Shown: positions 23,430-28,860 of the stretch, piece after piece
Layout of the letters: every line of letters starts with the position of its first letter
Position numbering within the stretch: position 1 is the first letter of the stretch
Source of the DNA: an uncultured Pseudomonadota bacterium
GTDB taxonomy: Bacteria > Babelota > Babeliae > Babelales > Vermiphilaceae
DNA length: 64,000 nucleotides
Assembly (NCBI GenBank): GCA_964433525.1
Contig: CAYSQT010000005.1
Span: 20,103-84,102, forward strand
Reading direction: 5' to 3'
Translations under genes and position numbers: made by a program
Notes under the pieces: generated by a model
Seen by the model: the letters and a program-made list of their open reading frames with translations, nothing else
Told to the model about the DNA's origin: nothing
The model's database searches: none

Positions 23430-23620
23430 ATGTGCACCAAAAAAAGGTGTGGCTGTTTTTATTTATCTCTTTGTAATTATAGCGAAAAGGTTGATTTTGT
23501 ACAGGTGGTCTATTTTGTAAAAAACGCTTATCTTTTAACTAATTTTGTACGTTTTAAGAAAGAATGATACATTGATACTATCCTCAATGATAGAAATCAG
23601 AAGTTAAAAGGATATTGGAT

Positions 23621-24922
23621 ATGTTTGATTTTCTTTCACAAAAATTTTCATCTCTTTTTTCAGGGCTGACAGAAGCGCAAACGCTTACACAAGAAAACAT
23701 TCAAGAAACTCTTGTGCGTGTTCATGATGCGTTACTGGAGGCTGATGTTCCTTATAATGTTGTTCAATCTTTTATTCAGGAATTAAAAGATGAGGTTGTT
23801 GGGCAAAAAATTGTTGCTTCATTGCAGCCTGCAGAGCACTTTTTAACATTAGTTCAACAGAAAATTATTACTTTTCTTGGAACAGATGCGGTAGTGTTTA
23901 AGCCATCAGAGCCATCGGTTGTTATGGTTATGGGGTTACAGGGTTCGGGTAAAACAACAACAATTGGCAAGCTTGCATACAAAATAAAAAAAGATGCTGC
24001 AAAAGAAGGAACCACAAAAAAAATAGTGATGGCTTCGGTAGATTTTTATCGTCCTGCAGCAATTGACCAATTAGAAATTCTTGCAAAACGAGTTGATGTT
24101 GATTTTTATCGAGCGCAAGAACGTGACGTTGTGCTGGCCGCAAAAGAAATTTATTCCTATTTTAGCAGCAACTCGTACGATCTGCTTTTTTTAGATACGG
24201 CAGGTCGTTTGCATATTGATAATACGTTATTGCAGGAACTGCAAAATATTGATGCTGCGTTGCAGCCAAAGCATAAATTATTGGTCCTTGATGCCATGAC
24301 GGGACAAGAGTCGCTTTCTGTGGCACAAGTATTTGAAGGAATGGTTGGTTTTCAGGGTGTAGTGCTCACTAAAATGGACAGCGATACCCGTGGTGGATCG
24401 GCATTTGCGTTCCGATATGTACTCAAAAAGCCTATTTTATTTGTGGGTGAAGGCGAACATTTAGCTGATTTAAATCTCTTTTTTCCTGACCGTGCAACTG
24501 AAAGAATGTTAGGAATGGGTGATTTACAATCATTGCTTGAGCGCGCAGATGAAAAAATTTCATTAGAAGAGCAGAAAAAAGCAGAACAGGCACTCAAGTC
24601 AGGCACTTTCTCACTGCAAGATTTTGCCGATCAGATAGCAATGATGAATCGGATTGGTTCTTTATCTCAGCTCATTAAATATATGCCAGGAGTAAATCTT
24701 AATATTTCTTCTGAAATGATTCATAAGGGAGAAACAGAACTTGCTAAATTTAAGGCTATTATTGCTTCTATGACTCAAAAAGAGCGATTGGATCCATCTC
24801 TTTTGAGTAATTCAAGAATTTATAGAATCGCCAAAGGGGCTGGGGTAGAGAGCGAAGATGTGACTATGCTTTTGAAGCGCTTTGAAGAAGCGAAACAATA
24901 TGTTAAACTAATGAACAAATAA
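23621..24922 (+). CDS. ffh: Signal recognition particle protein Ffh
   Basis: MFDFLSQKFSS..., GLQGSGKTTT, DTAGR, and a Met-rich M domain. The ORF track starts two codons earlier at TTG 23615. Confidence 0.93.
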   Translation: MFDFLSQKFSSLFSGLTEAQTLTQENIQETLVRVHDALLEADVPYNVVQSFIQELKDEVVGQKIVASLQPAEHFLTLVQQKIITFLGTDAVVFKPSEPSVVMVMGLQGSGKTTTIGKLAYKIKKDAAKEGTTKKIVMASVDFYRPAAIDQLEILAKRVDVDFYRAQERDVVLAAKEIYSYFSSNSYDLLFLDTAGRLHIDNTLLQELQNIDAALQPKHKLLVLDAMTGQESLSVAQVFEGMVGFQGVVLTKMDSDTRGGSAFAFRYVLKKPILFVGEGEHLADLNLFFPDRATERMLGMGDLQSLLERADEKISLEEQKKAEQALKSGTFSLQDFADQIAMMNRIGSLSQLIKYMPGVNLNISSEMIHKGETELAKFKAIIASMTQKERLDPSLLSNSRIYRIAKGAGVESEDVTMLLKRFEEAKQYVKLMNK

Positions 24923-24961: not shown

Positions 24962-25264
24962 ATGGCAGTCAAAATTCGTTTGTCCCGTATTGGAACAACA
25001 AATCGTCCGTTTTACAGATTAGTTGCTGTTGATTCTCGTAAAAAGCGTGATGGAGCGCAACTTGCAAATATTGGAACATACGATCCAATGAATGGAACTG
25101 TCGTTCAGTTTCATGAAGATATTTATCAAGAATGGTTATCAAAAGGCGCATTGGCAACAGATTCTGCAAAAAAAATATATAAATTATACAAAAAAATGAA
25201 TCAATCTTCCCCTGTTCAGTCAAAAACTCAACCAATGACGGATGAAGTGGTTGAGGCAGCGTAA
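24962..25264 (+). CDS. rpsP: 30S ribosomal protein S16
   Basis: MAVKIRLSRIGTTNRPFYRLVAVDSRKKRDG. 100 aa with a short C-terminal extension. Confidence 0.95.
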   Translation: MAVKIRLSRIGTTNRPFYRLVAVDSRKKRDGAQLANIGTYDPMNGTVVQFHEDIYQEWLSKGALATDSAKKIYKLYKKMNQSSPVQSKTQPMTDEVVEAA

Positions 25265-25273
25265 GGCGAGAGC

Positions 25274-25504
25274 ATGATTATAGAATTGGTTACTTTTGTA
25301 GTCCAGCAATTGGTATCTCGGCCTCAGGAAGTGAGTGTTACGTTGACTCATCGAGACGATGCAGATGTTATTGAAATCAAGGTTGCGGCAGATGATAGAG
25401 GACGTGTGATTGGTAAAGAAGGTTACACTATTAAAGCATTGCGCGTTCTTATTGATAGCCTCGTCGCAAAAGATAAAAAAATTTTATTAGAGCTTTCACG
25501 GTAA
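25274..25504 (+). CDS. KH-domain RNA-binding protein (UPF0109/YlqC-like)
   Basis: 76 aa. RGRVIGKEGYTIKALRVL contains the GxxG KH motif. It holds the conserved position after rpsP. Confidence 0.85.
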   Translation: MIIELVTFVVQQLVSRPQEVSVTLTHRDDADVIEIKVAADDRGRVIGKEGYTIKALRVLIDSLVAKDKKILLELSR

Positions 25505-25521: not shown

Positions 25522-26820
25522 ATGAATATATCAGTAGTCACCGTATTTAAGCAGTTATATGAACCATTCATTCATACAAGTCTTGTTGAAAGAGCTCAAG
25601 AAAGAGGGATTGTGCAAATAAACGTGCAATCTCTCTTTGATTATGTAAAACCAAAAGAGCGTATTGACGGCCCAACGTTTGGTCCTGGCGCGGGAATGTT
25701 AATCAAGCCAGAAGTGGTACAAAAAGCAGTAGAAGACAAAGAGGCTGCGCATGGCAAAGCGTTTAAGATCTTTTTTTCACCGCGAGGGCAAAAAATTGAT
25801 CAACATCTGTTTTCTGTTATTGCCAAAAAAATGCAAGAAACAAAGCATGTTATGCTTCTTCCCGCTCGCTACGAGGGCATGGATGTTCGCGTAGAAGATG
25901 AATATGCAGACATGATTGTGTCTGTTGGTGATTGTGTTCTTATGGGTGGCGATATTCCTGCGATGATGCTCATTGAAGGCGTGCTCCGTTTATTACCTAA
26001 TGTTGTGGGTAAAGAAGAATCTGTTCAGCGTGATTCTTTTAGTGGCCCATTTGTGGATTTTCCAGCATATACTGAGCCTGTCGTATGGAAAGAAAGAAAA
26101 GTGCCAGATGTGATTCGTTCTGGTAATCATGGTGCAATTGAAAAATGGCGTTATGAAAAAGCCGTGGAACAATCAGTCCGTGAACATTTTGCATGGGTGA
26201 GGTCTCATGCATTGACTGAAGCCGATAAGGTGGCGGTGAGCGCAGTTATTCCGTCTCATTATGTTGCGCTTATGCATGGTGAAGTTCTTGTTGGTGATGA
26301 GCGGAAAGAAGGGTGTACATCGGTCACTTCCATTGATATTCATGATATTGCACGTTCTTCAAAAACATATGGAATAAAAAATTATTTTATTGTAACACCA
26401 TTGTTAGATCAACAGAAAATTGTTCAAAAGATTCTTGATTTTTGGAAAAAAGGCATAGGCTTTGAATATAATAGGTCTCGGTATGATGCAATTTTTTCAG
26501 TAGAACTACATGATACGCTTGATGCGGTTATTGCATACATACAAGCAAAAGAAGGGGTGAGGCCTCTTATTGTTGCAACATCTGCTCGGCTGACAGATGC
26601 GCAGGAAATAATAACGTTTAATGATCAAAAAAAAGTATGGGCAGCACAAAGACCGGTGCTTATGTTATTTGGTACAGGCCAGGGATTAGCGCCATCGGTA
26701 ATTGCTCGATGTGACTTCTTATTATTACCAGTGCAAGGGTTTTCTACGTTTAACCATTTGTCAGTTCGCTCCGCTGCGGCAATTGTTCTTGATAGATGGC
26801 TTGGGTTGCAACCCCAATAA
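25522..26820 (+). CDS. trmD: tRNA (guanine37-N1)-methyltransferase TrmD fused to a C-terminal SPOUT-like domain (COG4752/Methyltrn_RNA_4-like)
   Basis: 432 aa. Residues 1-~235 carry the TrmD motifs (ARYEGMD, SVGDCVLMGGDIPAMMLIEG, SGNHGAIEKWR). Residues ~245-432 carry SIDIHDIARSSKTYGIKNYFIVTP...LMLFGTGQGL...FNHLSVRSAAAIVLDRWLG. Confidence 0.85.
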   Translation: MNISVVTVFKQLYEPFIHTSLVERAQERGIVQINVQSLFDYVKPKERIDGPTFGPGAGMLIKPEVVQKAVEDKEAAHGKAFKIFFSPRGQKIDQHLFSVIAKKMQETKHVMLLPARYEGMDVRVEDEYADMIVSVGDCVLMGGDIPAMMLIEGVLRLLPNVVGKEESVQRDSFSGPFVDFPAYTEPVVWKERKVPDVIRSGNHGAIEKWRYEKAVEQSVREHFAWVRSHALTEADKVAVSAVIPSHYVALMHGEVLVGDERKEGCTSVTSIDIHDIARSSKTYGIKNYFIVTPLLDQQKIVQKILDFWKKGIGFEYNRSRYDAIFSVELHDTLDAVIAYIQAKEGVRPLIVATSARLTDAQEIITFNDQKKVWAAQRPVLMLFGTGQGLAPSVIARCDFLLLPVQGFSTFNHLSVRSAAAIVLDRWLGLQPQ

Positions 26821-27355: not shown

Positions 27356-27817
27356 ATGTGGCACAAAGCAACGTATTGTTGTGTAGTGGCTTTATCTGTT
27401 TTATTATTACTACCCGCATGCAAAAAAGGCAAAATTGTTGCAGAGCGTGTTGTTGTTGATAAGCAAGAGCTTGATATTCAGCGTCAGGTGATACTTGACA
27501 ATATTGTGCAGCAAGAGGCTATGCTTGTTAACATTCCCATTCCTTTATATGATGAGCGAATTTTGCCACAAGCATTGGATTTTTTAGAATCAGAAACATC
27601 TGTTTTAGGTTATTCTAGTTCATTGATAGTGCAGCAGTTGATTGATTTTTTTATGAGTCAAATGGAGCTATATGGCTGGAAGCATCTTGTTTCATTTGAA
27701 AGTAACGAAACAATTCTTATTTTTGAAAATCCTTATTCATATGCGTGCATATCTCTCAAACATACTGCAGAACAAAAAACTTTGATTTTTATTTATACAA
27801 AGCGAGCGGACTTGTAA
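27356..27817 (+). CDS. Lipoprotein, unknown function
   Basis: 153 aa. Lipobox LLLLPAC at the end of the signal peptide. Confidence 0.6.
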   Translation: MWHKATYCCVVALSVLLLLPACKKGKIVAERVVVDKQELDIQRQVILDNIVQQEAMLVNIPIPLYDERILPQALDFLESETSVLGYSSSLIVQQLIDFFMSQMELYGWKHLVSFESNETILIFENPYSYACISLKHTAEQKTLIFIYTKRADL

Positions 27818-27854: not shown

Positions 27855-28223
27855 TTATCGAGTTCTGCGTTGATTTAGTTGCCTCATTAACTCATAATTT
27901 TCTCTGCGAAGCTCATCATTTTCTTGAACCAGTTCATCTATTTGTTGCTGCAAATCTCTGCGGCTTGCATTTCTGCTGTTATATCGGTAATTTCTAGTAT
28001 CTCTATTGTCTCTGTAATAATAATCTCTATCTCTATTGCGTGCAGAAGAATTTATTCCGCCTATGACACCACCTACTGCCATACCACCTAATATAGCGCT
28101 GCCTTTTCCTCTTCCTGCTGCAGCGCCAATTAATGCTCCTGTTGCCATGCCGCTACCTGGGTCATCAAGAAATGATTGCGCATTTGAAGATATAATAAGA
28201 ATGCTTAAAGCTATTTTTTTCAT
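27855..28223 (-). CDS. Secreted glycine-zipper protein with an R/D/N/Y-rich tail and coiled coil
   Basis: 122 aa. Has a signal peptide, GMATGALIGAAAGRGKGSAILGGMAVGGVIGGI (glycine zipper), then RNRDRDYYYRDNRDTRNYRYNSRN. Confidence 0.65.
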   Translation of the reverse strand: MKKIALSILIISSNAQSFLDDPGSGMATGALIGAAAGRGKGSAILGGMAVGGVIGGINSSARNRDRDYYYRDNRDTRNYRYNSRNASRRDLQQQIDELVQENDELRRENYELMRQLNQRRTR

Positions 28224-28256: not shown

Positions 28257-28607
28257 TTAGTCTCGTCTATTTGTACGACGATCTTCTTTTGCTCTACGTC
28301 GTTCTTCGCGTCTTTCTTCACGTCGTTCTCTGCCAGCGCCAAAAATACCACCAACAAATCTTCCTGTTCCTTCAACAGCACCTCCGACAACATCTCCTGC
28401 TCCTTCAACAGTGCCTCCAACAACTTCGCCTGTTCCTCTTACGGTGCCGCCAACAACATCTCCTGTGCCTTCAACTGTTCTTCCAACAACGCCAGGTTCG
28501 TAGTATCTATCGTCATAATATCTGTCATCATAATACCGAGCAGTAGTTAATGTGACTATTGCGAGTGCTGCAAGAGCAATATATTTATTCTTCATAAGAT
28601 TCTTCAT
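28257..28607 (-). CDS. Secreted low-complexity repeat protein
   Basis: Start preferred at MKNLMKNKYIALAALAIV..., preceded by GGAG with a 7-nt spacer. Contains YYDDRYYDDRYY, four GT(V/G)xG(T/A)GxVVGG units and an RERREERREERRR tail. Confidence 0.55.
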   Translation of the reverse strand: MKNLMKNKYIALAALAIVTLTTARYYDDRYYDDRYYEPGVVGRTVEGTGDVVGGTVRGTGEVVGGTVEGAGDVVGGAVEGTGRFVGGIFGAGRERREERREERRRAKEDRRTNRRD

Positions 28608-28860
28608 TCGATTTCTCCTTTTTTTCTTTTTCGCTTTTTTCTTTTTTCTTTTTTTGTTGTTTTTTTCTTTCTTGTCTTTCTTCGCCAAACCCAAGACTGA
28701 GGGTGTTTTCGCGTTCATTGTTGTTGTTTTCATCATTTTTTTGACCAGTCGTCGATGATGATGAATCTGATTTGAGAGTTTGTAGAGCTGCAGCGCCTAT
28801 GAGCATTGAAAGGGAGAGGCAGATGGTTACCCAAAAAACAATTTTTTTATTATATACCAC
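28585..28860 (-). CDS. Small secreted K/E-rich low-complexity protein
   Basis: 91 aa. A signal/TM segment (IVFWVTICLSLSMLIGAAA) is followed by S/N-rich and KKEK-rich sequence. Its 3' end overlaps the next gene's start by 23 nt. Confidence 0.45.
   Translation of the reverse strand: MVYNKKIVFWVTICLSLSMLIGAAALQTLKSDSSSSTTGQKNDENNNNERENTLSLGFGEERQERKKQQKKKKEKSEKEKKEKSNEESYEE

Follow-up and report, generated by a model that had tools for sequence, protein, structure and literature searches.

A 64,000-nucleotide (nt) stretch of contig CAYSQT010000005.1 (assembly GCA_964433525.1), hereafter the window, carries an open reading frame (ORF) in which the essential tRNA methyltransferase TrmD runs on into a second SPOUT-type methyltransferase domain, of the TM1570 type. 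The locus raises three questions: whether the two domains form one genuine protein, how they came to be joined, and which RNA the second domain acts on. The ORF, at 25522-26820 on the forward strand, begins with ATG and extends over 432 codons, the length stated in a preliminary description made from the sequence alone, and a stop codon, with zero internal stops. The source genome, 1.25 Mb in size and 97% complete, has its closest named relatives in Candidatus Babeliales of the phylum Dependentiae, and it contains exactly one match to the TrmD family PF01746 and one to the TM1570 family PF09936, both within this ORF; the fusion is the sole TrmD of the genome. We hold with high confidence that the product of the gene is a true and intact TrmD-Tm1570 fusion and supplies this small Babeliales genome with its only TrmD, with the mechanism and the stop-loss origin proposed below. 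The architecture itself is already known from Pfam, the PDB and papers from 2007 to 2026, and it is ordinary for the lineage; its discovery value is small and what remains is comparative.

Profile searches assigned the two halves to the families that the preliminary description had named. The TrmD domain (PF01746, tRNA_m1G_MT) was found at 25588-26178 on the forward strand, corresponding to amino acids (aa) 23-219, with an E-value of 1.5e-39 and 136.2 bits against a cut-off of 27.3, while the TrmD half as a whole, C-terminal helices included, extends over about aa 1-243. The TrmD equivalog profile of NCBIfam, TIGR00088, also passed (200.6 against a cut-off of 195), in agreement with the claim of a normal N-terminal TrmD. 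The TM1570-type SPOUT domain (PF09936, Methyltrn_RNA_4; COG4752) occupies 26260-26802 on the same strand (aa 247-427; E 4.6e-60; 203 bits, cut-off 22.6), and the match spans model positions 3-181 of 182. Among the NCBIfam models, the C-terminal half gave no more than trace signals to TrmJ and RlmH, and the fusion protein is not a member of TrmJ (COG0565, the tRNA Cm32/Um32 2'-O-methyltransferase), scoring 16.3 bits with TIGR00050 against a cut-off of 167.

Comparison with known structures gave the same assignment over the full length. In the sequence search of the PDB, the best match was 8b1n_A (436 aa), covering residues 4-425 of the query with an E-value of 1.4e-81, and stand-alone TrmD structures matched at about 1e-43. 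An AlphaFold2 monomer model, built on 38 homologues with a predicted local distance difference test (pLDDT) score of 80.2, again had 8b1n_A as its top Foldseek match (E 3.6e-38), and it reached target-normalised template modelling (TM) scores of 0.78-0.84 with TrmD crystal structures. The C-terminal half matched the Thermotoga maritima protein TM1570 (3dcm) both in sequence, with an E-value of 5.7e-42, and in fold, with a target-normalised TM score of 0.90 and a root-mean-square deviation of 1.9 Å over 187 columns, at 42% identity; unlike the Babeliales domain, TM1570 is encoded by a stand-alone gene and is not covalently fused. Model confidence was low in the FGPGAGM loop and in the TrmD inter-domain linker (aa 163-185). 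The search of the PDB also returned polyubiquitin entries over aa 325-372 (26494-26637), with whole-sequence E-values down to 6e-13. These matches were rejected as spurious: no single stretch was significant, and the score came from a short beta-alpha-beta likeness (AYIQAKEGVRP-like against the KIQDKEGIPP region of ubiquitin) added up over the tandem repeats.

At the level of individual residues, both halves look catalytically competent. The ORF contains the motifs ARYEGMD, SVGDCVLMGGD and SGNH, and alignment to 8b1n and 3ky7 showed that the loops of the S-adenosylmethionine (SAM) knot of TrmD are kept, namely the cover loop S86-P87-R88-G89, the wall loop R116-Y117-E118-G119 and the bottom loop S134-x-G136-D137...G143-D144. 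Other conserved residues of this half are R156, the acidic D171 and D179, and S200-G201-N202-H203; the knot-loop and catalytic residues are invariant in the clade with the exception of D171, where most relatives have E. The preliminary description had pointed out that the usual GGGPGM loop reads GPGAGM, and the change recurs across the clade. At aa 53-59 (25678-25698, forward strand), FGPGAGM replaces the YGGGPGM motif of TrmD as a clade-specific version of it; in 120 Babeliales homologues G54, G56, G58 and M59 are invariant, while position 55 is P in 101 and H in 19. Judged by these homologues, the variant is a conserved lineage signature and no lesion. From a cross-phylum alignment of 43 diverse members of the TM1570 family we defined 14 invariant columns, and the C-terminal half has all of them (D272, R278, W308, R320, T353, A355, G384, T385, G388, H412, L413, V415, R416 and A418), including the predicted catalytic R278, together with the C-terminal knot motif NHLSVRSA. 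The linker between the halves is conserved as well, with P244, H246 and Y247 invariant.

The fused state was then compared across the phylum. In all 151 sampled genomes, from 18 families and 96 genera, the fused frame is the sole TrmD. About 80 nt separate its PF01746 match from its PF09936 match, and both fall on one strand within a shared stop-free frame of 429-517 aa, apart from one frame of 362 aa whose remainder is cut off by a contig end. The fused state also holds for every one of the more than 120 protein clusters found at 60-80% identity, with lengths of 398-470 aa. The fusion is therefore fixed across the sampled Dependentiae. These counts bear directly on the concern that an assembly or sequencing error, in the form of a missing stop or a shifted frame, merged an adjacent trmD and tm1570. 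Many bacteria do have the two as separate abutting genes, sometimes a single in-frame stop apart, and one wrong base could mimic a fusion. Against this stand the same open frame in 151 independently assembled genomes, which answers by comparison the question whether a stop or the reading frame was lost near 26230-26260, and the invariant linker residues within the many diverged fused clusters. Together, the genomes and clusters exclude such an error far more strongly than the reads of one sample could, and we regard an artefact as scarcely conceivable. Fixation of the fusion as sole TrmD in a phylum of genome-reduced intracellular bacteria argues for strong selection on the TM1570 activity. 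Our literature search found no paper mentioning both Dependentiae and TrmD, and the phylum-wide fixation thus seems to have gone unremarked, though the proteins sit in public databases.

In some families of the phylum the fused frames are longer, at 470-517 aa (eight genomes), and in these the TrmD match was partial over the model or split in two, which hints at insertions towards the N-terminus of the TrmD half.

Fusions of this kind were first described by Tkaczuk et al. in 2007, in Desulfovibrio, Lawsonia and the strain MLMS-1 (PMC1829167). By that description, DVU0836 of Desulfovibrio vulgaris, LI0220 of Lawsonia and MldDRAFT_4740, all from Desulfobacterota, have the same COG0336-COG4752 architecture as the Babeliales protein, and the authors predicted a 2'-O-ribose methyltransferase active site in COG4752 (PMC1829167). 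According to Perlinska et al. 2024, Pfam holds 66 PF01746-PF09936 proteins, and the gene arrangements form a series from separate through adjacent and overlapping to fused (PMC11187310). The closest known system is TrmD-Tm1570 of Calditerrivibrio nitroreducens, a homodimer whose G37-dependent activity sits in the TrmD half (PMC11187310). Its crystal structure, 8B1N, in the PDB since 2022, shows SAM in each of the two knotted pockets, with Mg2+ at the TrmD site (da Silva et al., bioRxiv 10.1101/2023.03.13.532328); a 2026 preprint on this protein adds nothing further on its function. The literature treats the fusion mainly as a model 'double-knotted' protein. The Calditerrivibrio and Babeliales proteins share both Pfam domains, arranged in the same order, and are nearly equal in length (433-436 against 432 aa), and they have in common the knot loops, SGNH, the acidic Mg2+-binding or catalytic residues and the SAM loops of the TM1570 domain. 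However, they come from different phyla, are about 34% identical over the structural alignment (Foldseek), and differ in the TrmD loop (YGGGHGL against FGPGAGM) and in the catalytic acid, which is E in Calditerrivibrio and D171 here. From the full-length likeness to 8B1N, we infer that the Babeliales protein should form a homodimer with a double trefoil knot (3_1#3_1).

How the two genes came to be joined was approached from the wider family. An HMMER scan with the C-terminal half over 1.84 billion representatives returned 969 clusters at E <= 1e-3, and of the best 150, 112 were proteins standing alone, about 190 aa long, 26 were full fusions and 12 were fusion fragments. Among these 150 representatives the N-terminal extension was always TrmD or a fragment of it, and no other N-terminal partner of PF09936 was found. 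A scan of species-representative genomes placed the TM1570 family in at least 598 species. We retrieved 80 loci from Bacillota, Fusobacteriota, Desulfobacterota, Nitrospirota and other groups; in 56 of them trmD directly abuts or overlaps tm1570, bearing out the earlier remark that in some bacteria a separate gene beside trmD encodes the family. The pair in T. maritima, for example, overlaps by 7 nt (PMC11187310). Eight of the 56 have both genes in the same frame with one stop codon between them (loci L008, L009, L015, L032, L034, L063, L064 and L083). A gap of 0.5-1 kb separates the genes in 10 of the 80 loci, mostly from Fusobacteriota, trmD lies downstream of tm1570 in one, and 11 have no trmD inside the flank, two of these with almost no upstream sequence. 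The genes are fused in the remaining two, Candidatus Formimonas warabiya and a metagenome-assembled genome of Dadabacteria. Where a fused cluster could be placed by its name, it came from Dadabacteria/Thermodesulfobacteriota or from Ca. Mcinerneyibacteriales.

Since trmD usually abuts tm1570, with a single in-frame stop between them in eight of the 80 loci, fusion appears both easy and recurrent. The eight single-stop loci are candidates for occasional read-through to a fused protein, and they are one mutation away from permanent fusion. A maximum-likelihood tree of the TM1570 domain, limited to confident full-length rows (28 fused and 96 alone), showed the fused forms scattered. The fused state needs 26 changes on this tree, against a mean of 25.4 with shuffled labels, and at least seven changes are forced by well-supported branches. 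A single fused clade was rejected by the approximately unbiased (AU) test, with a log-likelihood difference of 515 and p = 4e-40. Since the tree has no root, some of the changes might just as well be fissions. The observations are most simply read as a gene pair of great age and stability, which has fused repeatedly by loss of the stop and whose fused state has become fixed in Dependentiae; the fusion in the window would have arisen when such a trmD-tm1570 pair lost the stop between its genes, as probably happened repeatedly in bacteria. By guilt by association, a very tight gene pair that has fused repeatedly and independently is good evidence of a functional link.

By homology with the Calditerrivibrio enzyme, the TrmD halves of the Babeliales homodimer would pair antiparallel and the TM1570 halves perpendicularly, each half holding its own trefoil-knotted SAM pocket. 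Its conserved catalytic residues suggest that the TrmD half converts G37 to m1G37 in tRNAs with G36-G37, an activity shown for the Calditerrivibrio homologue only. The TM1570 half would be a SAM-binding, SpoU-like domain that most likely carries out 2'-O-ribose methylation of RNA: the domain is SAM-bound in two crystal structures (8B1N and 3DCM), and its Arg/Ser active-site pattern resembles that of 2'-O-ribose methyltransferases. Some results weigh against this picture. For the TrmD half, a second NCBIfam TrmD model, NF000648, gave 205, under its cut-off of 220. For the TM1570 half, the isolated Calditerrivibrio domain showed about 18% activity on tRNA-Leu(CAG), comparable to the control with no SAM and barely above the negative control (PMC11187310), and this near-control activity leaves a tRNA target of the domain unproven.

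The same measurement would fit a TM1570 half that is no enzyme at all and serves as a dimerisation or RNA-binding module, stabilising TrmD or aiding its tRNA binding. Such a role is hard to reconcile with the invariance, across phyla and in Babeliales, of the SAM-loop and predicted catalytic residues R278, T353-x-A355, G384-T385-x-x-G388 and H412-L413-S414-V415-R416, and with the SAM bound in both crystal structures. Moreover, TM1570 stands alone in most of the species that carry it, hence has a function of its own. We consider such a non-catalytic role quite improbable.

Taking the TM1570 half as a probable methyltransferase, its substrate can be weighed. The lasting linkage to trmD and the repeated fusion to a tRNA enzyme speak for tRNA, which on account of this tight link is the favoured target. 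The preliminary description had reasoned from the covalent fusion that both activities act on the same substrate or in the same pathway, which it saw as a handle on an uncharacterised family. The reasoning is sound and the family is still functionally uncharacterised, but the handle is not new, as the hypothesis has been published (PMC11187310). In its fullest form, the TM1570 half would be an active 2'-O-methyltransferase on the tRNAs of TrmD, modifying a nearby position of the anticodon arm within one dimeric machine, the coupled activity being important enough to stay fused in every reduced Dependentiae genome. We put this forward tentatively, as a conjecture that may well prove wrong; if true, the Babeliales fusion would be a good system for assigning the target of the family. 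Methylation of rRNA or another non-tRNA substrate is a possibility to which we give similarly limited credence. The linkage to trmD would then reflect an operon for ribosome biogenesis (rpsP-khpA/rimM-trmD-rplS) instead of a substrate in common, and the gene does lie in an operon of ribosomal-protein and ribosome-maturation genes; SpoU-type relatives include rRNA 2'-O-methyltransferases such as RlmB, and the in vitro activity on tRNA-Leu was not convincing.

A more specific proposal is that TM1570 has taken over from TrmJ, without being its orthologue, and makes Cm32/Um32 in the anticodon loop of tRNA. No TrmJ scored above the cut-off in the source genome, and the same was true of 61 of 61 Dependentiae and of four of four Bacillota carrying TM1570. 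However, TrmJ is also missing from control Bacillota without TM1570 (B. subtilis and Lactococcus), and three of five genomes of the Desulfobacterota or Thermodesulfobacteria type have a genuine TrmJ alongside TM1570 (177-198 bits, cut-off 167). The pattern is not complementary, and TM1570 as a simple TrmJ substitute was rejected; the genomes that have both speak against the most straightforward guess, in which TM1570 makes Nm32, and replacement of TrmJ is an unlikely explanation. TrmL (TIGR00185) was not found above its cut-off in the source genome either, though this cut-off is so high that only two of 14 control genomes pass it. Three further SpoU-family genes are present in the genome, one TrmH-like, one RlmB and one of unclear type, at C1:159627-160046, C2:116320-116736 and C1:210254-210655 (C1 and C2 being contig labels).

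The fusion gene lies in a conserved cluster with the order ffh - rpsP - khpA - trmD-tm1570 - rplS, with hflX upstream on the opposite strand. All genes of the cluster are on the forward strand. It begins with ffh (SRP54) at 23615-24922, which matches Pfam SRP54, SRP_SPB and SRP54_N, followed by rpsP for ribosomal protein S16 (24962-25264, PF00886) and a KH-domain gene of the khpA type (25274-25504, PF13083) whose stop codon precedes the start of trmD by 17 nt. Downstream of the fusion comes rplS for ribosomal protein L19 (26903-27352, PF01245).

The usual place of rimM is between rpsP and trmD. RimM (PF01782) is absent here between khpA and trmD and was not found in the source genome, nor in any of 101 sampled Dependentiae (each at least 90% complete), while all ten bacterial controls have it; a very divergent RimM is possible. 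Coupling of the loss of rimM to the fusion was rejected, as the fused Formimonas and Dadabacteria genomes both retain RimM; the loss is therefore a trait of Dependentiae and not a consequence of the fusion.

Directly after rplS lies an ORF of 153 aa (27356-27817, forward strand) for which Pfam gave no family at E <= 0.1. In the protein Atlas it was linked only to clusters of 'hypothetical protein' (score 0.93), a minority of them with PF27226 (AF_1845). As a displaced, divergent RimM this ORF found no support in Pfam, and the weak Atlas lead points to an unrelated family of unknown function. Two small ORFs follow on the reverse strand, at 27855-28223 (122 aa) and 28257-28736 (159 aa), neither with a significant family; the 122-aa product gave weak matches of the coiled-coil type to YabA, DivIC and ZapB (E 0.01-0.07).
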